Assembly: GCF_013167455.1 (NCBI RefSeq)
Contig: NZ_CP038328.1
From: Escherichia coli O157:H7
GTDB lineage: Bacteria; Pseudomonadota; Gammaproteobacteria; Enterobacterales; Enterobacteriaceae
Strand: one strand, 5' to 3'
Length of the DNA: 64,000 bases
Below are positions 8,868-59,676 of this stretch, in pieces; positions within the stretch are counted from its first letter, which is position 1, and each line of letters starts with the position of its first letter. The position numbers and the translations under genes are program-made. The notes under the pieces were generated by a model that was not told the origin of the DNA, ran no database searches, and saw only the letters and a program-made list of their open reading frames with translations.

Positions 8868-11853
8868 TTATTCAAACAGGGCTTCAATATCGTTAATTAG
8901 CTCGCTGGCGGTGATGGCATCGAGTACGGAGAACTGCGCTTCCTGTGTTGAATTACTCCCCCAGCCATAGCTTTCTGCGTTGCCTTCCCATAGCCACAGC
9001 TTGCTTAAGATTTGCTCGGCACTCAGTTCGGCTGGCGACATGCCTACCGCAAAACCTTCATCGATTTCCATGATTAACGACCAGCGGCCCAGAGGTTTGA
9101 TCATCCAGCCGATCCAGCCTCCATCCTGCGGGGTGCCCTTTATCCAGCCTTTATTCGCCAGCCCCATGACCCGACCGCTCGGGCATTTTCTGCCTGCCCA
9201 GCGGGTCAGTTCGCTGGCGTTGCGCTCGGCTTCTGTCAGGGCGTAACTGTTACGGTCAAGCTGACGGAACGGTGGTAGCAGTTCATAGTCGGCAAAAAGC
9301 TGACCAAAGGCGGTAGCATCCGTCGGTGATATTTCCAGAACGTGAGGAATGCCAACAGAGATATCGCCTTCCGGCAGGGTGAAAAGATCATCGTCAGCGG
9401 TGCTGTAGCTGTTATCTTCCGCCACGCGGAAGCACGTCAGTAGCTGGTTTTCGGTGCTATAAACGCCCCAAATCAGACGGCGGGTTAAGTGGCGTACCAG
9501 TGGATGTTCAACCAGGAAGAGCTGAAAGTTTTCTGGCGACCAGCGGCGACGCAGGCACATGGCGGATTCCAACCTTGCTACCTGCTGGGCGGCGACGGTA
9601 CGCGCATCTTTTTTCAGCAGTTTGTAGCGGTTAACAGCATCGTTCGCCTGTGATTCATCATCGCTTTTGTTTGGTTTGGGCAGGTCTTTCAGACGGCTGC
9701 CAGAAACATCACGCACAAACGGTTTTAAGGTTTCATCAAAGCTGACGGTGAACTGGCGTGAGCCGAAATCCAGCAGCAACGAACCGTTATCATCCAGACC
9801 GAGATCCGGTGCTAACCGATCTTCAAGCTCTGCCACCGTGAGTTCGCGGCTTTCGGCAATGCCGGCAATTTTTTCTTTTGCCCGCTCCTGTAATGCTTTG
9901 AATTTCAGTTTCTGGGCAATACCGTTAAGCTGCATCAGGGCGATATCACTACCGATAGCGGCGAGAATATCCAACCCAACGGTGGCGCGTTTATGCTGGG
10001 ATTCACCAGGCCAGGCGCGTATTAATGGCGTCAGTTTGCGGGCGGTGTCATCGTTACCAAGAACGCCTAACGCAGTGAACGCCCAACTCTCTTTCGACGG
10101 TGCGCCCGCAGTCAGCCAGGCGGTAAACAGATCCCAGGCAAATTCAGCCAGTGAGTCGGCGGTACAGGCATCTTTCACCTGCAATAATCCCGGATACAGG
10201 GCCTCTTCCTGAGGGAAGCGGAGCATTTCACCGAGGTGCTGGAGTGCGCTATCTGGCAGTACCTTGCTGCTATTTTTGAGTTTCGGGCGAGTCCATAATG
10301 GAGGTTGATAAAACAACGGTAAAGGGGGGATTTTCGCCGGGTATTTACCCACAGGACTGTTGTCGTTATTTTTATTTTGAGTTTCCCAGGGCGGCGAGAC
10401 TAGTACCATTGGTAGAATTTCTGAGTTTGCAAAATCTTCATTGCGACTATTCAGCAATTGCTGACATTGTTGCAATAAATTTGCCGCTTGCGACGATAAT
10501 CCGATGACTAATTTTTCGACAAATAAAGGATTTGCATTAAGTAATGAAACCAGCAATGTATGTTTGCGTTTATCATCTTTTTTTACCAATGCTTCGGCTA
10601 ATGCCACTATCGTTGCAGAAGGAAAATTTTCGGCACTTTTTATTCGTAATGGCCAACGGATGATTAATACATTTCAGTACGTCACCGCAATTATCTTCTT
10701 CAGCATAGGGAGTCAGGCGAGCCAGTGCCGCTATACCTTGCTCCCGTAATACCGTAGCTGACCAACTGGCACCATAGGTGTTAAATACATCAATGTATTG
10801 ATAGTTCTCCAGTATTTCGAGCGTGAATGGATCTGTCGCTACCAGTTTCAACATTTCAAGTTGTGGAACATCTGCGACCTGGTGTAAACGATGTACGATC
10901 TCATGGGCCACTTCGGGTATTTCTGGCATTAAAATGGCAATTAACGGTTGGCGATAGAGTGATATATCTGGTAACGCAACGAGTAATTTTGCAATGCAAT
11001 TTTGCCATACTTCTTCTTCTGCTAGTGATAAATGTTTACGCAGACGTAAACTAAATTTGTCGTTATTCCTTCTATAACTGTCCTTGCTGCTATCTGCATA
11101 ATTAATAAAGAAAGTCAAATGTTCATCTTTATAGTCAAAATCGAAATCAATTTGCCACCAGAAGATGACAGTTTCAGTTGCGTATTCGATACCGAAGGTG
11201 CTTACAATTTCATCCAGCAACTCGGATGAGGTTTCATCATTCCAGCCCTGACAAAAACATATTTCCAGAAAAGTAAGTACCGCCATAGTACGCGCGGGTA
11301 TCTCAGTCTTTTGGGCCTTAATTAAGCTGATTGCCTGGCTAATCGCATCAGCCCATTCATCAGAGCATGAGCTGTAATCGAAAGTCAGATTTTTATAATA
11401 ATGATAAGTACGATTTGCCAATCGGGAAATTAAATTTTGTTTCTCGGGTTTGGTTGGTTTTTTTACTGGCTCTCCCGGCCAAAGGCGGTGGCTGAGGGCA
11501 TGGCGGGCAATATTCGGGGGAAGAATAATGGGATCGTTGTCTGCCAGCCAGGGTAAACCATTAGTTGCTGCCTGGCGATTTATTGAGGCTTTTTCCTCTG
11601 TGACCAGGACTTTCTTTGCTGAGGCATCATGTGAGTGAGCGTTAGCGTCTACTTGCTCCACATACCCCTTCTTCACCTTCTCCGCAATCAGCTTCAGTGC
11701 TGCTTTTTCCGCCGCCGCAGTATCTGCAAAGCTTTTTACCTGACTTTGCCCGTTGGTACCGACTTTACCCCAGTTAATATGCAGCTCGTTTCCCTGCTGC
11801 TCCACCGCCCAGAATTTATGTGATTTTTCGTCCTGATAAATATAGGTTTTCAT
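8868..11853 (-). pseudogene. molR/yehI-family paralog with WGR N-terminal domain, disrupted by a frameshift near 10575-10675
   Basis: Track ORFs 10573..11853 (MKTYIYQDEKSHKFWAVEQQGNELHINWGKVG...) and 8868..10607 overlap in different frames. The first frame matches yehI up to INHP, the second resumes at ENFPSAT, consistent with a single indel; the downstream piece begins at GTG, not ATG. Confidence 0.6.
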
Positions 11854-11865
11854 TGTTAAATCCTT

Positions 11866-14800
11866 TTAATCAAACAGTGATTCAATGTCGTTAATCAGCT
11901 CGCTGGCGGTGATGTCGTCGAGCATGGAGAAAGTGAGTGAGGATTGTTTACCGTAGCGATCATCTGGCGAGGTGATTTTTACGCTTTCAACCGGGTGCTG
12001 GTCGCCATACCCCGTTTCACCATAAATTAATGAAAAAGGTTCCGTTTCAAGTTCGAGATCGCCATGAGGGGTTGTTTTGCGCATCGCATAAACGCTGCCG
12101 CTTTCTTCCAGACGTTGCCAGCCTCTGCGTTCCAGCCCGACAATGCGTCCGGCCTGGCAAAGCCGTCCTTGCCAGCGTGTCAGTTCGTGAGTATTACGTT
12201 CATTATCAGCAAGGTGATAGCTACCTCGCTCGAGCTGTTGGAAAGGGGGAAGCAGTTCGTAATCAGCGTAAATTTGCCTGAATGCAGCGGCGGATTCAGG
12301 GGATATTTCCAGCACATGCGGAATACCGATGTTTCCTGCTGGCAGCGTGAATAACTCATCCTGCGCATCGCTGTAAGTGCTGTCTTCTGCCACGCGAAAA
12401 CAGGTGATAAGGGCGTTTTCATCGTTATAAACCCCCCATAACAGCCGTCGGGTTAAGTGACGTACCAGCGGATGCTCCACCAGAAACAGGCGGAACTGCT
12501 CTGCCGTCCAGCGTCTGCGCTGGCACATAGCCTGTTCCAGACGATCAATCTGCTGGCTGGCTATGGCGCGTACATCTTTTTTCAACTGTTTGAAGAGATT
12601 AACCGCGTCAGTTGCCTGAGTTTTTTCATCGCTCTGGTTTGGCTTAGGTAAATCTTTCAGGACTTTGCCGTTTGCATCGCACACTACAGGTTTTAAGGTT
12701 TCGTCAAAACCAACGGTGAATTTGCGGGGGCCGAAATCCAGTATCAGCGAGCCACTGCTATCAAGCCCTAAATCTGGAGCCAGGCGGTCTTCCAGTTCAG
12801 CCATAGTCAGCCCACGGTTTTCAGCAACTATGTTGATTTTCTCGCGGGCATGTTCCTGTAATGCTTTGAATTTAATTTTTCGCGCGATGCCATTAAGCAG
12901 CATTAGCGCAACATCGCTGCCAATATCAGCTAATACATCCAGCCCGGACACCGCCCGTTTATGCTGGGATTCCCCAGGCCAGGCGCGGATAAGCGGGGTT
13001 AATTTACGCGCGGTGTCGTCATTGCCTAAAATCCCAAGCGAAGTAAATGCCCAGTTTTCTTTTGCGGGTGCGCCAGCTTCTGTCCAGGCGGGATACAGAT
13101 CCCAGCCAAATTCAGCCAGTGATTCGCGGGTGAAGATTTCTCTAATGATATCCAGCCCAGCGTAGGCGGTAATGTCGCGAGGAAAGCTCAGCATAGTGCC
13201 GAGGTGGCGCATAGCGTCATCTGACAGAGGCAGGTTGTTACTTTTAAGCCGTGGTCTGCGCCACAAGGTGAACTGATAAAAGCCGGGCAGTGGGGCGATT
13301 TTAGCGGGATATTCTTCCAGTGGGTCGCTATCGAACAATGTTGCCAGCGCAGCTAAAACATCAGGTTGATTATATCCTTGCGCGATTTCCTCAATCGTTT
13401 CTCGCTGGTTTAAATTCACCAGCAGACGAAGCGCCTGGCGGGCACAATCACGATCTTTTCCTTTTTTGCCCAGGGCCACAGGAAGCAGCCCGGCGGCGGC
13501 ATGGCGTGGATAATCAGTTAGCCAGTTTCGCGCATCTTCATAAGACATTTTTTTCTGTAATTGTTGCGCCATCGGTAAGGCCAGTTCACTGACACCGAGG
13601 AAAAAGGGGAAGAAGCACAGACGTCGTGGATCACGTTGCAGGCAGGCCATAAATGCAGGTATGGCGGCGCTACCAAAAATTGCCAGAATATTTCCCTCAC
13701 CAGAGTAGTTATCTTCTTTGACTATCTGGTTAAGAAAAGAAATGGCCTGTTGACCAGGCAGGTAACAGAGGGCAATGAGATTCCAGCTTTTGTATGCATT
13801 GTTATGATAATGCACAAATTCAGCATTGAGTGCTGGAAAATCGAAGCGTAGCAGGGCATCAACGGCGCTTTGTGGCGCCGGAATTTTTTCGTATATTTTT
13901 TCTCCGCTCTCCCGCCATTTTTCAAAACCAAGATGCCACAGTATTTGTTGCTCCGGTGTAAGCGGTATTAAGTGTTTCTCCCAGCTTGCTTTTTTGATCG
14001 GCGGCAGGTCGGTAAACAATGTTTGTTTTGTCGCCTGCTGTTGGGCTATTTGCTGGAAGTGGGTGACAAGGTAAGTACGGGTCAGTTTTTTGGTAATCTC
14101 TGGAGTGACATCAGAAACAGAAGGAACTGGAAGCACTGGAAGATCAAACACAGGCGTATTTTTCTTTTTCTCTTTGGTCATCCAGGGCGGCGAAACAAGC
14201 AGCTCCGGCAACATATCCACAGTGGCATATTCACATTCTTCAGCGACTGACTGCGGACGACATTCAGATAAGATGCCTGCCGCTTTAGCATTAACCCAGG
14301 GAATGACGTCGCATACTAACTCTGGCGTGGCGGTAATCAGTTTGACAAGCGCTTTACGCCACTCTTTATCTTCATGTATTGCCAGCAAAGTAGCATAAGC
14401 CGCAATAGCCGCAGCGGGATGCTTTTGACTGGCCTTGCTTAAGTATTCCAGGTGCTTTTTCTTACCAATTACACCGAGGATCAGAATTTGAATCGCATCC
14501 GGGTGATTCGTTTTCCATAGCCATTTGACAAGATTTTCAGTCTCGCTGATGCGTTCGAAGAGATAAGTGGGATTGTCAGAATGGTCTTCCGTAAACTCAA
14601 GAAGTATCCGGCTTACACCGCGCACCCCATTATTTGCCAACAACATTGCCAGATAAGCGCGAAAATTACGAAAATCACGATACAACGGTGGGAAGTCGTA
14701 TTTTTCCACTGTACTCAGAGCAGTATCATCGGTTATCACCAGTCTTAACCAGGTCATCGCCGGGACGTTTTGGTCTGCATAGCGTAGATCTATAGCATGG

Positions 14801-19924: not shown

Positions 19925-20467
19925 ATGAAACATTCAATTATTGCTGTCGCTGTCTTATCTTCTGTATTTATGAGTGCTGGTATTTTCGCTGCTGAAGTAG
20001 ATACCGGAACTTTAACCATTAAAGGTAATATTGCAGAATCACCATGTACATTTGTCGCTGGCGGTGATTCAGTCAGTATTAATATGCCGACTGTACCCAC
20101 CACTGTATTTGATGGTAAAGCGAAATATTCAACTTATGATGGCGCGGTTGGTGTAACCAGCAGTATGCTGAAAATTACTTGTCCGAAGACTATTGATGGC
20201 GTAAAACTTTCGTTGATCACCAACGAGAAAATTCTTGGTAATGATAAGGCAATATCCAGTAGTAATGACACAGTTGGATACTATCTCTATTTGGGAGATA
20301 GCAGTGACGTACTGGATATTTCCGCACCATTTAATATTGAAAGTTATAAAACTGCTGATGGACAATATGCAATACCGTTTAAGGCAAAATATCTGAAGTT
20401 GACTGACAGTGGTGTTGCATCTGGTACAGTTAACTCTTCATTGGTTATGCGTGTTGCCCAGGATTAA
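19925..20467 (+). CDS. yehD: Fimbrial major subunit YehD
   Basis: 180-aa ORF, signal peptide ending FA|AEV, type-1-fimbrial-subunit-like; first gene of a chaperone-usher cluster; SD aaggaa. Confidence 0.85.
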   Translation: MKHSIIAVAVLSSVFMSAGIFAAEVDTGTLTIKGNIAESPCTFVAGGDSVSINMPTVPTTVFDGKAKYSTYDGAVGVTSSMLKITCPKTIDGVKLSLITNEKILGNDKAISSSNDTVGYYLYLGDSSDVLDISAPFNIESYKTADGQYAIPFKAKYLKLTDSGVASGTVNSSLVMRVAQD

Positions 20468-21244: not shown

Positions 21245-23725
21245 ATGTTGAGAATGACCCCGCTTGCATCAGCAATAGTCGCGTTATTGCTCGGCATTGA
21301 AGCACATGCAGCAGAAGAAACCTTTGACACCCATTTTATGATGGGAGGAATGAAAGGTGAGCAAGTAACAAATTTGCGTCTTGATGATAATCAGCCTTTA
21401 CCTGGGCAGTACGACATTGATATTTATGTCAATAAACAATGGCGTGGAAAATATGAGATTATCGTCAAAGATAACCCACATGAAACTTGCCTGACGCGTG
21501 AAATTGTAAAGCGGTTAGGTATAAATAGCGATAATTTTGCACGCGAAAATCAGTGTTTAACATTTGAGCAACTTGTTCAGGGCGGAAGCTACTCCTGGGA
21601 TATTGGGATTTTTCGTTTGGATCTCGCTGTTCCGCAAGCCTGGGTTGAAGAGCTGGAAAATGGTTACGTTCCGCCAGAAAACTGGGAGCGGGGAATCAAT
21701 GCGTTTTATACGTCTTATTACGTAAGTCAGTATTACAGTGACTATAAAGCCTCGGGCAATAGTAAGAGCACTTATGTGCGTTTTAACAGTGGGCTAAATT
21801 TGCTGGGATGGCAGCTGCATTCAGATGCCAGTTTTAGCAAAACGGATAATAATCCTGGTGAGTGGAAAAGCAACACGCTGTATCTGGAGCATGGATTTTC
21901 TCAAATTCTCGGTACGCTGCGTATTGGTGATATGTACACCTCAGCCGATATATTTGATTCCGTTCGCTTCACCGGGGTTCGGTTATTTCGTGATATGCAG
22001 ATGTTGCCAAACTCGAAGCAAAATTTTACCCCACGGGTACAGGGGATTGCCCAGAGTAACGCGTTGGTAACTATTGAACAGAACGGTTTTGTCGTTTATC
22101 AGAAAGAGGTTCCACCAGGTCCGTTTTCGATTAGTGATTTGCAGTTAGCGGGCGGAGGGGCGGATCTTGATGTTAGTGTTAAGGAAGCCGATGGTTCTGT
22201 GACTACGTATCTGGTGCCTTATGCGGCAGTACCTAATATGCTGCAACCTGGTGTATCAAAATATGATTTTGCGGCAGGCCGTAGTCATATTGAAGGTGCG
22301 AGCAAGCAAAGTGATTTTGTCCAGGCGGGTTATCAGTATGGTTTTAATAATTTATTGACGCTGTATGGCGGCACGATGGTTGCTAATAATTACTATGCCT
22401 TTACCCTCGGAACAGGTTGGAACACGCGTATTGGCGCAATTTCAGTCGATGCAACTAAATCGCACAGTAAGCAAGACAATGGTGATGTGTTTGACGGACA
22501 AAGTTATCAAATTGCCTATAACAAATTTTTGAGCCAAACATCAACACGTTTTGGTCTGGCGGCCTGGCGTTATTCGTCGCGTGATTACCGCACATTTAAC
22601 GATTATGTGTGGGCAAATAATAAAGATAATTATCGTCGTGATAAAAACGATGTCTATGATATTGCCGATTATTACCAGAATGATTTTGGTCGCAAAAATA
22701 GCTTTTCCGCCAATATGAGTCAGTCATTGCCAGAAGGCTGGGGATCTGTGTCATTAAGTACTTTATGGCGTGATTACTGGGGGCGAAGCGGCAGTAGTAA
22801 AGATTATCAACTGAGTTATTCCAATAACTGGCGGCGGATAAGCTATACCCTCGCGGCAAGCCAGGCGTATGACGAGAACCACGCCGAAGAGAAACGCTTT
22901 AATATTTTTATATCGATTCCCTTTGACTGGGGCGATGACGTTACGACGCCGCGACGGCAAATATATATGTCTAACTCAACGACCTTTGATGATCAGGGTT
23001 TTGCTTCAAACAATACCGGATTATCGGGAACCGTTGGGAACCGCGATCAGTTTAACTATGGTATCAACTTGAGCCATCAACATCAGGGAAATGAAACGAC
23101 AGCTGGGGCCAATTTGACCTGGACCGCACCGGCCGCAACAGTGAATGGCAGCTATAGTCAGTCGAGTACTTATCGACAGGTCGGAGCCAGTGTTTCAGGG
23201 GGACTGGTTGCCTGGTCTGGTGGCGTTAATCTGGCGAACCGTCTTTCCGAAACGTTTGCTGTGATGCATGCGCCGGGAATCAAAGATGCTTATGTCAATG
23301 GGCAAAAATATCGTACAACAAACTGTAATGGTGTGGTGGTGTACGACGGACTGACACCTTATCGGGAAAATCACCTGATGATGGATGTGTCGCAAAGCGA
23401 TAGCGAAACAGAATTACGCGGGAACCGTAAAATGACCGCCCCTTATCGCGGCGCGGTCGTTCTGGTTGATTTTGATACCGATCAGCGTAAGCCCTGGTTT
23501 ATAAAAGCATTAAGATCCGATGGACAGCCATTAACGTTTGGTTATGAAGTCAATGATATGCATGGTCATAACATTGGTGTTGTCGGCCAGGGCAGTCAGA
23601 TATTTATTCGCACCAATGAAATACCGCCAGCGGTTAATGTGGCAATTGATAAGCAACAAGGGCTTTCATGCACAATCACCTTCGGTAAAGAGATTGATGA
23701 AAGTAAAAATTATATCTGTCGGTGA
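21245..23725 (+). CDS. yehB: Outer-membrane fimbrial usher YehB
   Basis: Start MLRMTPLASAIVALLLGIEAHA (SD caggag); 826 aa. Confidence 0.85.
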   Translation: MLRMTPLASAIVALLLGIEAHAAEETFDTHFMMGGMKGEQVTNLRLDDNQPLPGQYDIDIYVNKQWRGKYEIIVKDNPHETCLTREIVKRLGINSDNFARENQCLTFEQLVQGGSYSWDIGIFRLDLAVPQAWVEELENGYVPPENWERGINAFYTSYYVSQYYSDYKASGNSKSTYVRFNSGLNLLGWQLHSDASFSKTDNNPGEWKSNTLYLEHGFSQILGTLRIGDMYTSADIFDSVRFTGVRLFRDMQMLPNSKQNFTPRVQGIAQSNALVTIEQNGFVVYQKEVPPGPFSISDLQLAGGGADLDVSVKEADGSVTTYLVPYAAVPNMLQPGVSKYDFAAGRSHIEGASKQSDFVQAGYQYGFNNLLTLYGGTMVANNYYAFTLGTGWNTRIGAISVDATKSHSKQDNGDVFDGQSYQIAYNKFLSQTSTRFGLAAWRYSSRDYRTFNDYVWANNKDNYRRDKNDVYDIADYYQNDFGRKNSFSANMSQSLPEGWGSVSLSTLWRDYWGRSGSSKDYQLSYSNNWRRISYTLAASQAYDENHAEEKRFNIFISIPFDWGDDVTTPRRQIYMSNSTTFDDQGFASNNTGLSGTVGNRDQFNYGINLSHQHQGNETTAGANLTWTAPAATVNGSYSQSSTYRQVGASVSGGLVAWSGGVNLANRLSETFAVMHAPGIKDAYVNGQKYRTTNCNGVVVYDGLTPYRENHLMMDVSQSDSETELRGNRKMTAPYRGAVVLVDFDTDQRKPWFIKALRSDGQPLTFGYEVNDMHGHNIGVVGQGSQIFIRTNEIPPAVNVAIDKQQGLSCTITFGKEIDESKNYICR

Positions 23726-23735
23726 GAGGTGAAAT

Positions 23736-24770
23736 ATGATGTTCAGAAATAGAATATTACTAATATTTATATTGTGGGCTAATTTTACCTGGGCTGGGTG
23801 TCGTACTACTGCATCATTAAATATTACAGATGGTATTAATGTTGGGGAGATTTTAGCGAATGAAACTTCCTTTAGTAAAAGTGTCGTGTTTACTGGGATA
23901 TCTTGTGATACGAGCACGGATAAAATAGTTTATAAAAATATCCAAAGTGATTGGGTTGAAGTTGGGCCTTTTGGTAATGGCGAAAAATTAAAGGTTAAAA
24001 TAGAGTCTTTAGGTAAAACCAGCGACACAATTGGGAAATCCAGCAATGCGCAGGCAGTATTACCTTATGTGGTTAAAATAGCCAGAGGCACACCTGATTT
24101 TACTGGAGAAAGAAAATCTACCTGGTTTATTTCAGATACCGTGATTGCAAATATTGGCGGTGAGTCATCGTCATCCATCGATTTTTGGTTGGGTATTTGT
24201 AAGGCATTGAAGTTTAACTGGTGTGTGAATTATCTCACCAGCAAACTGGCGGGGGATACATTTACGCTTGGGTTAAATATTTCCTATTATCCTAAAAATA
24301 CGACCTGTAAGCCTGAAAACACCGTTATAAAAGTAGATGATATCGCCTTGTTCCAGCTCAGAAATCAGGGAAAGATTGCGGCGAACAGTAAGGAAGGAAC
24401 AATTACGTTGAAATGTGATAATCTTTTCGGCGACAAAAAACAAGCATCGCGGAATATGGTTGTATATCTTTCTAGCAGTGACTTAGTTAAAGGAAGTAAT
24501 ACTATTTTGCGTGGTAAAACAGATAATGGTGTAGGGTTTGTGTTGGATCTAACAGAACCACCAAAAGGGACTGAGGCTGCCATTAAAATTTCGGCCAACG
24601 GCGATCAGGGCGCGGCGACATCATTATGGAAAACAGATAAACCAGGAGTTTCATTAAATAGCAACATTATTAATATACCAGTCATGGCCAGTTACTATGT
24701 ATATGATGAAAAAAAAGTTAAATCTGGCGCACTGGAAGCAACCGCATTAATCAACGTGAAATACGATTAA
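23736..24770 (+). CDS. yehA: Fimbrial adhesin-like protein YehA
   Basis: 344-aa ORF with signal peptide, last gene of the cluster. Confidence 0.8.
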   Translation: MMFRNRILLIFILWANFTWAGCRTTASLNITDGINVGEILANETSFSKSVVFTGISCDTSTDKIVYKNIQSDWVEVGPFGNGEKLKVKIESLGKTSDTIGKSSNAQAVLPYVVKIARGTPDFTGERKSTWFISDTVIANIGGESSSSIDFWLGICKALKFNWCVNYLTSKLAGDTFTLGLNISYYPKNTTCKPENTVIKVDDIALFQLRNQGKIAANSKEGTITLKCDNLFGDKKQASRNMVVYLSSSDLVKGSNTILRGKTDNGVGFVLDLTEPPKGTEAAIKISANGDQGAATSLWKTDKPGVSLNSNIINIPVMASYYVYDEKKVKSGALEATALINVKYD

Positions 24771-24826
24771 TAACAAGCAAGATGAGCAAGTGGCTAATAA
24801 TAAGAAATAATAAGGTGTCTGCATTT

Positions 24827-24853
24827 CCCCCTCTCTCCGAGGGGGCTTTTTTT
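24827..24853. terminator. Intrinsic terminator between convergent yehA and rcnB
   Basis: Stem ccccctc(24827-24833)/gaggggg(24839-24845), T-run 24847-24853, A-rich on the other side. Confidence 0.6.
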
Positions 24854-25407: not shown

Positions 25408-26259
<852 letters not shown>

Positions 26260-26399: not shown

Positions 26400-26672
26400 A
26401 TGTCTCATACAATCCGTGATAAACAGAAACTGAAAGCGCGTGCCAGTAAGATTCAGGGCCAGGTCGTGGCGCTCAAGAAAATGCTCGACGAGCCGCACGA
26501 ATGCGCTGCAGTTTTACAACAGATTGCTGCTATCCGTGGCGCGGTAAACGGTCTGATGCGGGAAGTGATTAAAGGTCATCTAACGGAACATATCGTTCAC
26601 CAGGGGGATGAGCTAAAACGTGAAGAAGATCTGGATGTTGTTCTGAAGGTGCTGGATTCTTATATCAAATGA
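26400..26672 (+). CDS. rcnR: Ni/Co-responsive repressor RcnR (CsoR/RcnR family)
   Basis: 90-aa [24 protein letters not shown]..., divergent from rcnA. Confidence 0.9.
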
Positions 26673-26781
26673 AAGTGCCTAATATGGCCGTAGTTGAGGC
26701 AATAAATAGAGGGACAAGTGACGTTAAGCTGAATTAGAGTAAATGGCGTGAGGACACACGCCATTCGAGGTTATAGTTTGA

Positions 26782-27096
26782 TTAATTTTCGAAAAATTGC
26801 TTCACAGCCCAGCCACCATGACCACCTGGAGTTATGAATGAAACAAAACCTTTGTCATCTACGCTCTGGATTTCTACCGTCATTGATTCATCTAACACGC
26901 GACATTTATTGGATGTAATGAGACTCAGCATAGCCTGTTGGTCATTGTCCTGGATGTAACTGATCATCTCGTAAAAGTCAGTTAACTTTTTACAGTTAAA
27001 TGTACCTTCTTTAAGTGTTGCGCTGTCTCCGTGACTTAGTGCGAATGCATTTGGCATCATTGCCACAAAGATGACGGTAACGAGTAGTTTTTTCAT
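26782..27096 (-). CDS. Hypothetical small secreted protein (104 aa, signal peptide, 2 Cys)
   Basis: ATG 27096 with SD aagagg; signal peptide MKKLLVTVIFVAMMPNAFA; 9 nt downstream of the preceding ORF; in AT-rich DNA. Confidence 0.5.
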   Translation of the reverse strand: MKKLLVTVIFVAMMPNAFALSHGDSATLKEGTFNCKKLTDFYEMISYIQDNDQQAMLSLITSNKCRVLDESMTVEIQSVDDKGFVSFITPGGHGGWAVKQFFEN

Positions 27097-27105
27097 TTTA
27101 GCCTC

Positions 27106-27453
27106 TTATAATTCAGAACATTCACTGATGTTGTAAGTGCCTTTTCTACCATCATCGTTTACGAGATGTAGCACGAAGATGATGGGATTGGCATCAATGA
27201 AAGATACAGAGACGTTCCCGCTTTCGGTGCTATACATCTTTGCAATCTGTTTTTCACCAATATATGAGAGATCCCAACTCACTCCGTTCAAGCTAAAATG
27301 CATCTGTTTGCCGTCAATATCGATGGAGGATTGTGCCGTAACGGTTTTCCCATTGCTGCCAATTTGACCCTGCTGAAGAGCATCACATTTATAGGAGCTT
27401 GCATAAGTAGATAGAGGTAGTAGCAGAAGTGCAGCAAAAATTTTACTCTTCAT
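27106..27453 (-). CDS. Hypothetical small secreted protein (115 aa, signal peptide, 2 Cys)
   Basis: ATG 27453; signal peptide MKSKIFAALLLLPLSTYA; first gene of an apparent two-gene operon in AT-rich DNA. Confidence 0.5.
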   Translation of the reverse strand: MKSKIFAALLLLPLSTYASSYKCDALQQGQIGSNGKTVTAQSSIDIDGKQMHFSLNGVSWDLSYIGEKQIAKMYSTESGNVSVSFIDANPIIFVLHLVNDDGRKGTYNISECSEL

Positions 27454-28503
27454 ATTTTCCCTTTGCTTGGATTTGGGTTACCTATTTTGGGGTAGTCATT
27501 ATAAAACTATTAATTAGTAAAACGAACAAGTTTTCATTTGTTTAGCAATGGTATTGTTTAGGTTTGAAATTATTACGTATTTTCATAGCAATAGGTTGGA
27601 TAAACAGCAGTTCAGGGAACAAGTTGCACTATCTACATACTTTTCCGCTTTCCATTGCATGTTAGGTAATAGATAGCCTTTGCCCGTAAGACTAAAAATA
27701 TTAGAAATGACTCATTCGAATACCTTCTATTCACCTTAATATAGGTTTGATTATTGTAATCGTTTAATGTGTCTTATGATTTTTTCCTACTTTTCATTTG
27801 CATAATATAGGGGGCACAGCATGCTCTTGAAATTAATTATTAAAATATTTAAATTTTACAGCACACAACTACTTTTCGTTGTCTTATGTGTTGAACGTAC
27901 TTCGAGTATAGGTAGGGTTGTATATATATTGCGTGGGTAGAGTTAGAATAGAGGAAGCATCATTTATAGAATATTCAAGAACGTTAGCCTGTGATCAATA
28001 AATAAAAATATCAAATGGTGTTCAAACATATTTTTCTATGAAAAATCCAGCCATCTATGATGAATTTTTAGATCCATTTTAATTAAAGTATGATTATGAA
28101 CCAAGATTTAGCCAAGAATGGGGGTATAGCGCGTATCCAATGACACCGGAAAACGCATCTATGAAGTCCTTATTTATCTCTATAAGAGGAAATCAACACT
28201 AATAAAATGTAGTGATGTAACATATCGAGCAGGTTGCTCTGATGCTGGTCTTCAACTGTGGCTTAAACAGCTATCAAACTTCGGTGTTATTGAGATGAAA
28301 GAATTATCATTCTCAACTATCAATCTCAAAAAGCTAGAGAAAATAGACCTTAATTATTCCACTCTCTAAATTTATCTATTTATTTAAAGTAAAAATGAAA
28401 ATATTATGGTATCAGCTACGTGGTGGTAACTGGTTTTTATGATCATAGGTACATATACAGGGAACCCTGGAAAACGAAAGTAATATATTGATGATTTCGT
28501 TTG

Positions 28504-28743
28504 TTATAACTTCGTGGTATCAAGTCCGGCGGCTTTGAGTCGCTCGGTAAGATTTCTCATTTTGCTGAACTCTGTAGCAAAGCTGGCTTTAAGTCCTACA
28601 CCTTCGCAAAACTCTTTTGCCGTGACGTTTTTCAGATGGTCAGCGTATTTGATCATCTGGAGGTGCATTTCCATCGTTTGGCTATTTCGTGGTGCGCTGC
28701 TAATGGCTTGCTTAATGTTCTCGTAGATCTGGGTTTCTGTCAT
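28504..28743 (-). CDS. Hypothetical small cytoplasmic protein (79 aa)
   Basis: ATG 28743 preceded by SD aggtga (the track's 28761 start is TTG); no signal peptide; family not recognised. Confidence 0.45.
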   Translation of the reverse strand: MTETQIYENIKQAISSAPRNSQTMEMHLQMIKYADHLKNVTAKEFCEGVGLKASFATEFSKMRNLTERLKAAGLDTTKL

Positions 28744-28944
28744 TTTTATCTCACCTATCAAATTTAGATAAATAATATAAATTAGCTAATTAAGATAGTC
28801 TACAGTTTTTACCACCTGAATGATGGGTGTGAATTGTTTCTTTTTCATTACTGATATGGGGTACACAGTGAAGACGTAATGAATGGAGGCGAGCTTGCAT
28901 CTGCAAGCCTCTTCCCCTAAGCTGGCACAAAATATAGAGATTCA

Positions 28945-29076
28945 ACCAAACGACTCGGGGTGCCCTTCTGCGTGAAGGCTGAGAAATACCCGTATCACCT
29001 GATCTGGATAATGCCAGCGTAGGGAAGTCACGGACCACCAGGTCATTGCTTCTTCACGTTATGGCAGGAGCAAACT
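28945..29076 (+). promoter_or_regulatory. TPP riboswitch (THI element) in the thiM leader
   Basis: Sequence ggggtgcccttctgcgtgaaggctgagaaatacccgtatcacctgatctggataatgccagcgtagggaagtc matches the thiM TPP aptamer; expression platform runs to the thiM SD/ATG. Confidence 0.85.
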
Positions 29077-29865
29077 ATGCAAGTCGACCTGCTGAGTTCC
29101 GCGCAATCTGCGCACACGTTACACCTTTTTCACCAACATTCCCCTCTTGTGCACTGCATGACCAACGATGTGGTGCAAACCTTTACTGCCAATACCTTGC
29201 TGGCGCTCGGTGCATCGCCAGCGATGGTTATCGAAACCGAAGAGGCCAGTCAGTTTGCGGCTATCGCCAGTGCCTTGTTGATTAACGTTGGCACACTGAC
29301 GCAGCCACGCGCACAGGCGATGCGTGCTGCCGTTGAGCAAGCAAAAAGCTCTCAAACACCCTGGACGCTTGATCCAGTAGCGGTTGGTGCGCTCGATTAT
29401 CGCCGCCATTTTTGTCATGAACTTTTATCTTTTAAACCGGCAGCGATACGTGGTAATGCTTCGGAAATCATGGCATTAGCTGGCGTTGCTAATGGTGGAC
29501 GGGGAGTGGATACCACTGACGCCGCAGTTAACGCGATACCCGCTGCACAAACACTGGCACGGGAAACTGGCGCAATCGTCGTGGTCACTGGCGAGGTGGA
29601 TTATGTTACCGATGGCCATCGCGCCGTTGGCATTCACGGTGGCGATCCGTTAATGACCAAAGTGGTAGGAACTGGCTGTGCATTATCGGCGGTTGTCGCT
29701 GCCTGTTGTGCGTTACCAGGCGATATGCTGGAAAATGTCGCATCTGCCTGTCACTGGATGAAACAAGCCGGAGAACGCGCAGTCGCCAGAAGCGAGGGGC
29801 CAGGCAGTTTTGTTCCACATTTCCTTGATGCGCTCTGGCAATTGACGCAGGAGGTGCAGGCATGA
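29077..29865 (+). CDS. thiM: Hydroxyethylthiazole kinase
   Basis: 262-aa ORF directly after the TPP riboswitch; followed by overlapping thiD. Confidence 0.9.
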
Positions 29866-36884: not shown

Positions 36885-37000
36885 GTAGGACGGATAAGGC
36901 GTTTACGCCGCATCCGGCAACCTATGCCTGATGCGACGCTGAAGCGTCTTATCATGCCTACGCAGCGCTGCCACATATGTTTACGCCGCATCCTGCATAA
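36885..37000. repeat. REP/BIME cluster downstream of fbaB
   Basis: Imperfect palindromes of the gccggatgcggcgtaaacgccttatcc type (ggataaggcgtttacgccgcatccggca; gcctgatgcgacgctgaagcgtcttatcatgcctac). Confidence 0.6.
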
Positions 37001-45274: not shown

Positions 45275-45362
45275 TAAAAAATAAGCCCGTGTAAGGGAGA
45301 TTACACAGGCTAAGGAGGTGGTTCCTGGTACAGCTAGCATTTTATGGGTTATGTTTTTCAGC
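45275..45362 (-). ncRNA. cyaR: CyaR (RyeE) Hfq-dependent sRNA
   Basis: Minus strand reads GCUGAAAAACAUAACCCAUAAAAUGCUAGCUGUACCAGGAACCACCUCCUUAGCCUGUGUAAUCUCCCUUACACGGGCUUAUUUUUU, matching CyaR as I recall it, including the terminator hairpin and U-run. Confidence 0.75.
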
Positions 45363-45446
45363 GAAACGGATGATAACCTTAATAAATGCAGCTGTATGTG
45401 ATCGGTTTCTAAGAATTTTCCATCCGGGAAAAATAATCGAAATTAA

Positions 45447-58689: not shown

Positions 58690-58833
58690 GAAACGGGAAA
58701 GCCCCCTCCCGAGGAAGGGGCCATAAATAAGGAAAGGGTCATGATGAAGATACTCATCATCGTGGTGCTCTTAGTGATTAGCTACCCAGCATACTAAGAC
58801 TACCAGGGCGGGGGAAACCCCGCTCTACCCTCA
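58690..58833 (-). ncRNA. Sib-family antisense sRNA (antitoxin), copy 1
   Basis: Minus-strand promoter (-35 TTGACA = plus 58863-58868, 17-bp spacer, -10 TACTTT = plus 58840-58845); transcript spans the ibs ORF antisense and ends at a hairpin near 58700-58722. Coordinates approximate. Confidence 0.5.
58740..58796 (+). CDS. Ibs-family type I toxin peptide, 18 aa (MMKILIIVVLLVISYPAY)
   Basis: ATGATGAAG start after aaagggtc SD-like stretch, TAA stop; IbsB-like sequence. Confidence 0.75.
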
Positions 58834-59018
58834 CTCCTGAAAGTATGCCTTCACGTTCAGAATGTCAATCCGCAGGCTTTGCAGTCTGCGATCCTGCCAG
58901 CAAATATTCTTTGCGAGACGTTACGCAATAATCACAGAGGAAACTATTTTATCCGCAAGTCAGCGATAGACTGAATTCAGGGCGAAAGGAGGTAAGCCGA
59001 CGATTTCAGCGGGACGCT

Positions 59019-59161
59019 GAAACGGGAAAGCCCCTCCCGAGGAAGGGGCCTTAAATAAGGAAAGGGTCATGATGAAGTGGATCATCATCGTGGTGCTCTT
59101 AGTCATAAGCTTCCCGGCTTACTAAGACTACCAGGGCGGGGGAAACCCCGCTCTACCCTCA
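59019..59161 (-). ncRNA. Sib-family antisense sRNA, copy 2
   Basis: Same promoter architecture (TTGACA = plus 59191-59196; -10 TACTTT = plus 59168-59173); antisense to the second ibs ORF. Coordinates approximate. Confidence 0.5.
59069..59125 (+). CDS. Ibs-family type I toxin peptide, 18 aa (MMKWIIIVVLLVISFPAY)
   Basis: Second repeat unit; ATGATGAAG...TAA. Confidence 0.75.
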   Translation: MMKWIIIVVLLVISFPAY

Positions 59162-59346
59162 CTCCTGAAAGTATGCCTTCACGATAAGATTGTCAATCTG
59201 CAGGCTTTGCAGTCTGCGATCCTGCCAGCAAATATTCTTTGCGAGACGTTACGCAATAATCACACTGGAAACTATTTTATCCGCAAGTCAGCGATAGACT
59301 GCATGCATGGCGAAAGGAGGTAAGCCGACGATTTCAGCGGGATGCT

Positions 59347-59495
59347 GAAACGGGAAAGCCCCTCCCGAGGAAGGGGCCTTAAATAAGAAAAGGGTTATGA
59401 TGAAGCACGTCATCATACTGGTGATACTCTTAGTGATTAGCTTCCAGGCTTACTAAGAACACCAGGGGGAGGGGGAAACCTTTCCCTAACCCTCA
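59347..59495 (-). ncRNA. Sib-family antisense sRNA, copy 3 (SibA-like)
   Basis: Promoter TTGACA (plus 59525-59530), 17-bp spacer, -10 TAATTT (plus 59502-59507); antisense to the third ibs ORF. Coordinates approximate. Confidence 0.5.
59397..59456 (+). CDS. ibsA: Ibs-family type I toxin peptide, 19 aa (MMKHVIILVILLVISFQAY), IbsA-like
   Basis: Third repeat unit, nearest yegL as ibsA is in K-12; ATGATGAAG...TAA. Confidence 0.7.
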   Translation: MMKHVIILVILLVISFQAY

Positions 59496-59676
59496 CTCCT
59501 GAAATTATGTCACTCCGCCCTTAGTGTCAATCGACGGCTCTCCGTTCTTGCGAGGCGAATAGCAAAATTTTCTGCGCCGCCGGGCCTAATTCTGAAAGTT
59601 TCTTCGTTTGCTCTTATTTCATTATTGCAATCGGTATGATACCGGACCTCAATAATTCTCTAAGAAAGGATTTCTT

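Follow-up and report, generated by a model that had tools for sequence, protein, structure and literature searches.

A probable remnant of riboswitch-targeting integrative islands upstream of thiM in Escherichia coli O157:H7

Genomic islands that target tRNA and tmRNA genes (P4-type) carry a tyrosine integrase at one end and direct repeats of the target at both, bring a replacement copy of the part they displace and often decay to integrase-less remnants. The thiM thiamine pyrophosphate (TPP) riboswitch is among the most conserved non-coding sequences in bacteria. The present analysis concerns a 2272-bp islet (26671-28942, no strand) between rcnR and this riboswitch in a 64,000-nucleotide stretch of E. 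coli O157:H7 DNA (contig NZ_CP038328.1, assembly GCF_013167455.1; hereafter the window), which is of O157:H7 type and shows 100% identity to EDL933, Sakai and many other strains. The islet is probably what decay and loss of mobility have left of one or more small integrative defence islands of Enterobacterales, and in all likelihood these islands use the thiM TPP riboswitch aptamer as their attachment (att) site. O157:H7 would then preserve the relic of a mobile-element class in which a riboswitch aptamer has this role, a class that seems not to have been described before.

The closest described systems are linked to this locus by position or by gene content. RptR, characterised both structurally and biochemically, is a homodimeric repressor of the RRDM defence island of enteropathogenic E. 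coli (EPEC) (Zhang et al., NAR 2025, PMC12255303; PDB 9R2Z). It binds 9-bp direct repeats with TAGCTA (variants TAGATA, TATCTA and TATATA) overlapping the -10 element, and two sites are enough for repression even with an intervening non-site; residues E58, S60 and K61 of helix alpha4 bind DNA, while E25, L69, A72 and L74 mediate dimerisation (PMC12255303). In E. coli B, a report places ECD_02033 (81 codons, MQMTETQI…) at thiM, directly upstream of EcoBLMcrX, describes reduced restriction upon transposon insertion in this gene, and notes that the island 'adjacent to thiM' is variable among isolates (Fomenkov et al., PLoS One 2017, PMC5487053). A supplementary table lists a type IV restriction system at the 'rcnR-thiM' locus, in a 7,956-bp, 8-gene insert (Hochhauser et al., PLoS Genet 2023).

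The thiM riboswitch as probable attachment site

The rcnR-thiM intergenic region of K-12 MG1655 spans 222 bp and is empty of the islet, with rcnR followed by 90 bp and the riboswitch. In the window, where rcnR occupies 26400-26672 (plus strand) and thiM starts at 29077, blastn homology to K-12 ends at 26670, within the rcnR stop codon (TGA in O157, TAA in K-12), and restarts at 28943, the islet replacing the native 90-bp spacer. The right junction is precise, and the left junction is a secondary deletion.

Complete islands at the rcnR-thiM junction of other E. coli measure 7.7 kb (strains 20 and 503025), 8.9 kb (ATCC 8739) and 11.0 kb (ETEC1732), giving intact islands a size range of 7.7-11 kb. 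Their order is rcnR, a K-12-type 90-bp spacer, a first TPP riboswitch copy, a tyrosine integrase gene (434-435 aa, starting ~67 nt past the left riboswitch copy), cargo, a minus-strand homologue of the islet gene termed C here, a second riboswitch copy and thiM. Two Rfam-annotated riboswitch copies are found in intact islands of E. coli, Klebsiella and Citrobacter, and both copies in the E. coli islands share 82 bp that are 100% identical to positions 28943-29024 of the window (plus strand). This direct repetition of a riboswitch segment at both ends of intact islands is what points to the aptamer as the att site. In the right copies of ETEC1732, BL21, Klebsiella and Citrobacter, the 5' portion has a variant sequence specific to the element (CAATCTACATGACTCGG…CTTCTTAAATGAAGG), which narrows the common crossover region to a 51-bp core (28974-29024, plus strand; GAAGGCTGAG…GCGTAGGG), the most conserved part of the aptamer. 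In the junction alignments, the left copy consists of the native promoter and the repeat followed by island DNA (GGCCRAAA…), and the right copy of island DNA and the repeat followed by the native 3' P1 strand, the expression platform and thiM. The integrase-proximal copies score lower against Rfam (60-63 bits) than the thiM-proximal copies (71-73 bits) because they are without the 3' P1 strand.

From these alignments, the island family appears to carry its own 5' aptamer half and upstream DNA. An element would integrate by site-specific recombination inside the aptamer upstream of thiM and supply this half with its upstream DNA, leaving thiMD with a complete riboswitch, while its integrase would land behind the native thiM promoter and an aptamer copy lacking the 3' P1 strand. 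The window contains one copy of the 82-bp att sequence and one TPP riboswitch, where intact relatives have two; the retained riboswitch (28946-29042, plus strand) is a complete aptamer, matching RF00059 with 71.2 bits (gathering threshold 54.3) over model positions 1-105.

Intact islands occupy this site in other E. coli and in Klebsiella, Citrobacter, Enterobacter and Erwinia. K. pneumoniae and C. freundii show the same architecture beside thiM (Pfam HK), and there the gene on the far side is not rcnR. As the thiM flank is constant and the other flank varies by genus, the target is the thiM leader rather than the rcnR-thiM interval. The 82-bp att sequence is present in 5,701 copies in 5,424 complete E. 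coli genomes, i.e. ~277 extra copies with at most three per genome, and the integrase family occurs in 222 complete E. coli genomes, full-length in 178 and in many cases truncated, with at most two copies per genome. A scan of one genome per species for attL junctions, in which the riboswitch core is fused to the left arm of the island, matched nine loci. Eight of these encode a 65-79%-identical integrase ~70 nt downstream, in Enterobacter, Silvania, Atlantibacter, three Citrobacter, Erwinia and a Flavobacterium-labelled metagenome-assembled genome, the last probably reflecting contamination. The ninth, in Pantoea septica, has the junction with no matching integrase; it lies only ~3.3 kb from thiM (5429-9704 of locus L023), and this locus is another decayed form of the island. 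In C. freundii, a P2-type capsid gene is located just past the integrase-proximal riboswitch copy (20267-20315 of locus L009), suggesting that a second element is stacked at the site.

At the left end of the islands is the tyrosine integrase (phrog_1), followed by a first cargo slot with an HNH type IV methyl-directed restriction enzyme, TIR-STAND (PDC-S60), GmrSD or SIR2. Next comes an exported protein resembling the product of islet gene B, in some islands with that of gene A alongside. Further genes, from left to right, code for a C-protein/CapH-like helix-turn-helix (HTH) protein, a DNA-invertase-like serine recombinase (phrog_125), a replication-initiator/DnaD-like winged HTH (wHTH) protein and a small wHTH protein. 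A second cargo slot encodes a DUF6998 protein (PADLOC mREase_II, E 9.5e-97) with the gene C homologue (rptR) after it, at the right end in the E. coli islands examined. The DUF6998 N-terminus, MIAREAY, resembles the MSAREAY of EcoBLMcrX, known from a primer published for its cloning; in BL21, the EcoBLMcrX locus carries a DUF6998 annotation.

Some further observations concern this gene set. The acidic C-terminal tip of the single-stranded DNA-binding protein (SSB) recruits SSB-interacting proteins, and the replication-initiator-like proteins (28494-29213 of locus L006, 820-1482 of L008 and 27937-28710 of L007) end in the SSB-tail-like …DFDIPF or …FDPIPF. A chimeric 103-aa database protein (P0039) joins the first 48 residues of RptR to the C-terminal half of a B-like protein and is evidence for another island deletion variant, in which two genes on the same strand were fused. 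In the 238-kb plasmid pPSS-08-1_1, an RptR homologue directly adjoins a tyrosine integrase near BREX (6006-7551 of locus L015), which indicates that RptR-type genes also travel with other integrase-linked defence modules.

The islet ends on its right in an 85-bp island-derived arm (28858-28942, plus strand) with a GGGGTACA repeat (28858-28865), the palindrome GCTTGCA-TC-TGCAAGC (28893-28908) and the invariant block CTTCCCCTAAGCTGGCA…TATAGAGATTCAA (28911-28945). This arm is conserved across genera, E. coli and Klebsiella among them, and is kept by islands that lack rptR. In every genus examined, the right arm contains two to three GGGGTACA or GAGGTACA motifs, and these reappear round the integrase start codon on the left; they are candidate arm-type binding sites of the integrase. 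The right arm presumably holds these arm sites together with the promoter for thiMD after integration. Since the native 90-bp upstream region is lost in O157, thiMD would be expressed from island-derived DNA, and we infer that the new thiM promoter lies there. The -10 candidates picked manually in the arm, TATAGA and TAAGCT, are weak and are not asserted. On integration, promoters would be swapped, with thiMD driven by element DNA and a rebuilt aptamer and the integrase placed under the native thiM promoter and a P1-less aptamer. That the riboswitch is chosen for this regulatory effect, such that thiamine status could modulate integrase expression and island stability, is a distinctly unlikely proposition; if it holds, thiamine-salvage expression in O157:H7 would be permanently dependent on foreign DNA.

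The islet as a decayed remnant

The GC content of the islet is 0.366, against a window mean of 0.497 (sd 0.046, 2.27-kb windows), making it the lowest-GC 2.27-kb stretch of the 64 kb, with just 0.2% of windows equally low. The GC content falls to 0.318 in the central non-coding kilobase, and 27454-28503 contains gene remnants and no annotated gene. An AT-rich islet running from rcnR to the TPP riboswitch, with about 1 kb of AT-rich non-coding DNA and degenerate open reading frames (ORFs), had been described in an earlier note made from the sequence alone. Both features stand, the degenerate ORFs being pseudogene pieces of an integrase, a replication-initiator-like protein and a small wHTH protein. 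The note also proposed horizontal acquisition, to be checked by presence or absence across E. coli genomes, and this too is upheld: the full islet occurs in a minority of 339 out of 5,426 complete E. coli genomes, the K-12 site is empty, and the same genes are found in integrase-bearing islands at this site elsewhere. The main point, namely the riboswitch as integration site and the islet as a decayed immobile remnant, had escaped it. Apart from a few, the 339 genomes belong to O157:H7 or O55:H7; every one covers the islet in full and has an identical left junction. The A-B block is present in 343 complete E. coli genomes, the extra four at only 76% identity.

Several parts of the islet correspond to parts of intact islands. 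At the nucleotide level, 26736-27539 is 76% identical to the A-B block of ETEC1732, while 28355-28942 is 86-89% identical to the right ends of intact islands, the match to strain 20, ETEC1732 and ATCC 8739 covering the right 440-1100 bp of the islet. A 3' remnant of the integrase gene (27591-27686, plus strand; tblastn E 4e-6) comprises ~30 C-terminal codons, including the catalytic-tyrosine region, and reads …YLHTFPLSIAC*VIDSLC with an in-frame stop, where the intact integrase has …RYLHTFPLSTVCYVIDGLC. It is followed by the 3' remnant of a replication-initiator-like wHTH gene (27939-28082, plus strand), again with an in-frame stop and ending in a degenerate SSB-tail-like …DEFLDPF in place of …DFDIPF, and by a remnant of the small, 81-aa wHTH gene (28139-28336, plus strand), which retains 76% amino acid identity to residues 16-81 of WP_000617145, has lost its start and yields no callable ORF. 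A terminator-like hairpin (26746-26759, minus strand) is located downstream of gene A, in the block conserved with the ETEC1732 and Citrobacter islands. A second riboswitch copy, the K-12-type 90-bp spacer and an intact integrase gene are all absent from the O157 islet, which is hence immobile.

In the O157:H7/O55:H7 lineage, deletions would have removed attL, the native thiM promoter, most of the integrase, the defence cargo and the recombinase, with the left deletion stopping exactly at the rcnR stop codon. What was retained would be the right arm, gene C, the B-A pair and debris of the integrase, replication-initiator-like and wHTH genes. The integrase fragment lies to the right of A-B and both are in their normal orientation, and for this reason a single element with simple deletions cannot give the observed order. 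A pair of elements in tandem that then underwent at least three deletions, of which the leftmost stopped at the end of rcnR, is the most economical and, from the arrangement of the pieces, more likely history. Tandem occupancy is found elsewhere, with up to three riboswitch and two integrase copies per genome, but for O157 both the tandem origin and the order of the deletions are reconstructed from the end product. Inversion by the invertase-like recombinase was considered as a source of the gene order and ruled out, as the A-B genes and the integrase remnant keep their usual orientation.

Alternatively, the islet would not be an insertion but DNA already present in ancestral E. coli, which K-12 and most other lineages have lost. 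In favour of this, the segment lies between core genes, and in O157 no repeats of its own flank it. The K-12 90-bp spacer is, however, intact at the left end of every integrase-bearing E. coli island, which makes the spacer the ancestral state, and the islet contains an integrase fragment and arm sequences common to the Klebsiella and Citrobacter elements. With its GC content of 0.37 against 0.50 and its presence in only 6% of genomes, ancestral DNA is an extremely unlikely source.

The reading of the islet as a decayed island remnant also has points to weigh against it. The order of the pieces fits no single intact island, as A-B lie left of the integrase remnant and the integrase is leftmost in intact islands, and this mismatch means that a tandem array plus at least three deletions must be assumed. 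About 65 bp at the left edge (26673-26735) and ~250 bp at 27687-27938 are unmatched by blastn and tblastx in the compared island loci, and no direct progenitor with O157-type A-B (>95% identity) plus an integrase was found among complete E. coli genomes. A promoter scan of the right arm detects no consensus sigma-70 thiM promoter, and the excision and integration activity ascribed to the islands is deduced from comparative structure. With regard to the retained genes discussed below, the RptR of the intact strain 20 island is likewise without a co-directional downstream gene, such that 'orphaned' may not fit gene C fully, and any function proposed for A and B would derive from low-identity similarity of predicted folds to a very common barrel.

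Genes retained in the islet

Gene C (ECs_2908; 28504-28743, minus strand) is an intact 79-aa ORF preceded by the Shine-Dalgarno (SD) sequence AGGTGAG, as the earlier note had described. The same note recognised none of the three islet products; this remains apt for A and B, which match no Pfam, NCBIfam or PADLOC family, but not for the 79-aa protein, a homologue of RptR. Gene C matches Pfam HTH_73 (PF24718) over residues 2-71 (E 2e-30) and chain A of PDB 9R2Z, a 79-aa 'Transcription factor', with 53 of 77 residues identical (69%; E 1.5e-31), and in the HMMER alignment to 9R2Z it keeps all seven named RptR residues (E25, E58, S60, K61, L69, A72 and L74). Its dN/dS lies within 0.04-0.08.

The predicted rptR promoter (28764-28802, minus strand; -35 TAGACT, -10 TATATT) coincides with a 9-bp-phased operator array, which reads CTATCTTAA-TTAGCTAAT-TTATATTAT-TTATCTAAA on the minus strand and ends 21 nt before the gene C ATG. 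It includes the canonical RptR sites TAGCTA (28783-28788) and TATCTA (28765-28770), both on the minus strand and 18 bp apart, plus two near-sites in register, and the predicted -10 element lies between the two canonical sites. This paired pattern occurs once in 64 kb, where 0.01 occurrences are expected, and the array is conserved in strain 20, ETEC1732 and ATCC 8739. Gene C is followed in O157 by convergent pseudogene debris, with no minus-strand ORF and hence no defence operon downstream, whereas its ETEC1732 orthologue precedes the gene for the DUF6998 methyl-directed restriction enzyme. By homology, gene C is an RptR-family autorepressor without cargo. Its homodimer would bind TAGCTA and TATCTA over its own -10 element, and as the cargo is gone it would regulate only itself; both the DNA binding and the repression in O157 are extrapolated from RptR.

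Genes B (ECs_2909; 27106-27453, minus strand) and A (ECs_2910; 26782-27096, minus strand) form a B-A operon in which B is the first gene. The earlier description of two adjacent minus-strand genes for secreted-type proteins is accurate: A and B code for 104 and 115 aa, are separated by 9 nt and have exactly two cysteines each, which are invariant (C35 and C65 in A, C23 and C112 in B). The N-termini show a K-rich start, a hydrophobic core and an AxA-type cleavage motif (NAFA|LS and STYA|SS), and across homologues the first 19-20 residues are variable, in contrast to a conserved mature part. Both proteins would be exported via Sec-type signal peptides and be periplasmic.

No support could be traced for 'outer membrane protein', the RefSeq name of A. 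Searches of Pfam, NCBIfam and PADLOC return no significant match for A or B, B having none in Pfam even at E<=10, and NCBIfam has no match for C either. The hits of A to PADLOC HEC-01B (E 0.019) and Pfam DUF4369 (E 0.041) are insignificant, and the full-length PHROGs matches of A, B and C are uninformative, being only unannotated high-numbered families of query length that probably derive from mis-called prophage regions. Word-indexed homologue searches of A and B returned close relatives only. Homologues of A with 74-85% identity are found in Klebsiella, Citrobacter and other Enterobacteriaceae. An exhaustive profile search of 1.84 billion representatives yielded just two full-length clusters for B (at 50% identity), the B type itself and a 43%-identical B-like type, which occurs without A in the strain 20 and ATCC 8739 islands. 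In the contexts examined, B is followed by A beside a resolvase gene in thiM-adjacent islands of ETEC1732, K. pneumoniae and C. freundii; in the last, an insertion sequence (rve transposase) lies between A and the resolvase gene (10750-11901 of locus L009). The dN/dS values of 0.06-0.08 for A and 0.04-0.05 for B imply that these families are maintained by selection; the B-A pair recurs as a conserved module of the islands, and purifying selection acts on it.

The mature proteins give confident AlphaFold models, with pLDDT 88 and pTM 0.79 for B, and pLDDT 90.6 and pTM 0.75 for A. B is modelled as an eight-stranded antiparallel beta-barrel closest to the PliC/MliC/PhiA inhibitors of peptidoglycan hydrolases, but avidins, lipocalins, Cap15 and de novo designs reach similar Z values. 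A is modelled as an SH3/Tudor-like barrel into which two helices are inserted; it aligns over the greatest length in the PDB with SH3b domains of cell-wall enzymes, and its best matches in the AlphaFold database (AFDB) are ~105-aa uncharacterised exported proteins or lipoproteins from many phyla. The PliC/MliC/PhiA proteins share only 5-10% identity with B, there is no Pfam MliC match, and the topology is common to many unrelated barrels. B could be a PliC/MliC-like inhibitor and A an SH3-like partner, both in the periplasm, but a role for B as a periplasmic peptidoglycan-hydrolase inhibitor, the leading candidate function, suggested by resemblance and not by membership of the family, is doubtful. 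The earlier suggestion of immunity proteins may apply to B on the same fold resemblance.

The pair may alternatively be the point of the islet, as a periplasmic protective module in which B is an inhibitor or immunity protein against a phage lysin, a type VI secretion system (T6SS) effector or host lysozyme and A binds the cell wall, with selection for the pair having preserved the fragment. Such a module is compatible with the islet being a remnant. Its proponents would have to account, however, for the absence of any sequence match to MliC or another family in Pfam, NCBIfam and PADLOC, for barrel matches at similar Z elsewhere, for inhibitor loop motifs of MliC/PliC that are not evident in B, and for the lack of a cognate hydrolase encoded nearby, and we hold it to be unlikely.

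The earlier note had further suggested secreted effectors; on such a reading the islet would be virulence-type cargo acquired by the enterohaemorrhagic E. coli (EHEC) lineage. The near restriction to O157:H7/O55:H7 among complete genomes, the AT-richness and the small size of the exported proteins are in keeping with this. The pair is also encoded, however, at 74-85% amino acid identity in pig enterotoxigenic E. coli (ETEC), Klebsiella pneumoniae, Citrobacter and Buttiauxella, and in each context examined (ETEC1732, K. pneumoniae and C. freundii) it lies in an island next to thiM. It accompanies anti-phage islands in non-pathogens, and it has only Sec-type signal peptides and no likeness to known effector families. 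A single deletion product, inherited vertically and with the identical left junction in all 339 genomes, explains the lineage restriction. The effector part of the proposal is thus unsupported, and virulence cargo is very unlikely. In itself the islet is of an ordinary kind, a decayed island in which one regulator can be identified beside a pair of orphan exported proteins.

Elsewhere in the window, a second low-GC stretch (23500-24850; 0.34-0.41) lies on the far side of rcnAB, over a yehA-type fimbrial gene. The RefSeq allele here is 'fimbrial protein' WP_001301545.1, and strains 20, ETEC1732, ATCC 8739 and 503025 have other accessions, labelled 'putative fimbrial-like adhesin protein'. The length of rcnA (25408-26259) differs between strains, being 852 nt here, 840 nt in the Sakai annotation, 825 nt in K-12 and 804 nt in strain 20, presumably in the His/Asp-rich loop repeat. 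Rfam further detects three tandem Sib antitoxin RNAs, two OrzO-P antitoxin RNAs, CyaR and naRNA4 at 58726-59530 (minus strand), 3721-4405 (minus strand), 45279-45364 (minus strand) and 36888-36958 (plus strand). We take the OrzO-P antitoxin RNAs to be the zorO-orzO locus typical of O157.

Comparison with known systems

The thiM TPP riboswitch emerges as a landing site for small integrase-borne anti-phage islands across Enterobacterales. This island family explains rcnR-thiM as a variable defence locus, listed earlier without a mobile-element assignment, and gives ECs_2908-2910, three genes long listed as 'hypothetical', a context as an RptR-type repressor and an exported island module within AT-rich island debris. 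It also makes available a compact, defined att/integrase pair and the tiny orphan protein family B. In an incomplete literature library, we found no report of a riboswitch serving as attB or of a genomic island with an integrase at thiM, and none relevant to ECs_2908-2910; the riboswitch att site is probably novel.

Like the RptR of the EPEC system, gene C encodes a 79-aa protein with the same conserved residues and has 9-bp-phased sites over its -10 element, with two sites on either side of a non-site, an arrangement that suffices for repression by RptR. In EPEC, Type I RM and DarTG2 are encoded downstream, whereas O157 has neither of these nor any other defence gene, and the main text of that paper contains no mention of thiM, a riboswitch or an integrase, the association with thiM islands being absent there (PMC12255303). 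The EcoBLMcrX island of E. coli B occupies the same site with the same first gene as in O157, ECD_02033 being the orthologue of gene C. It has retained a methyl-dependent restriction enzyme of the DUF6998 family downstream of the regulator, which is lost in O157, and is without the A-B pair. In the available part of its description the riboswitch is not mentioned, and integrases are mentioned only for the DE3 prophage and another island of E. coli B (PMC5487053). The rcnR-thiM locus in the supplementary table of Hochhauser et al. (2023) matches a strain-20-type island and is given with mobile-element type 'None', no numbered hotspot and no integrase or att analysis; it carries a restriction system, whereas the O157 remnant has no recognised defence system.

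With the islands that target tRNA and tmRNA genes, the thiM islands share an integrase at one end, flanking repeats, a structured RNA as target and a replacement copy of the displaced part. They differ in targeting a cis-regulatory riboswitch within an mRNA leader and in replacing its 5' half plus the promoter, and not the 3' end of a gene for an RNA. The thiMD operon of the host would hereby come to depend on element DNA, and the integrase would lie behind a host promoter. With the riboswitch rebuilt and the host promoter replaced, the logic of tRNA- and tmRNA-targeting elements would be extended to a cis-regulatory RNA.

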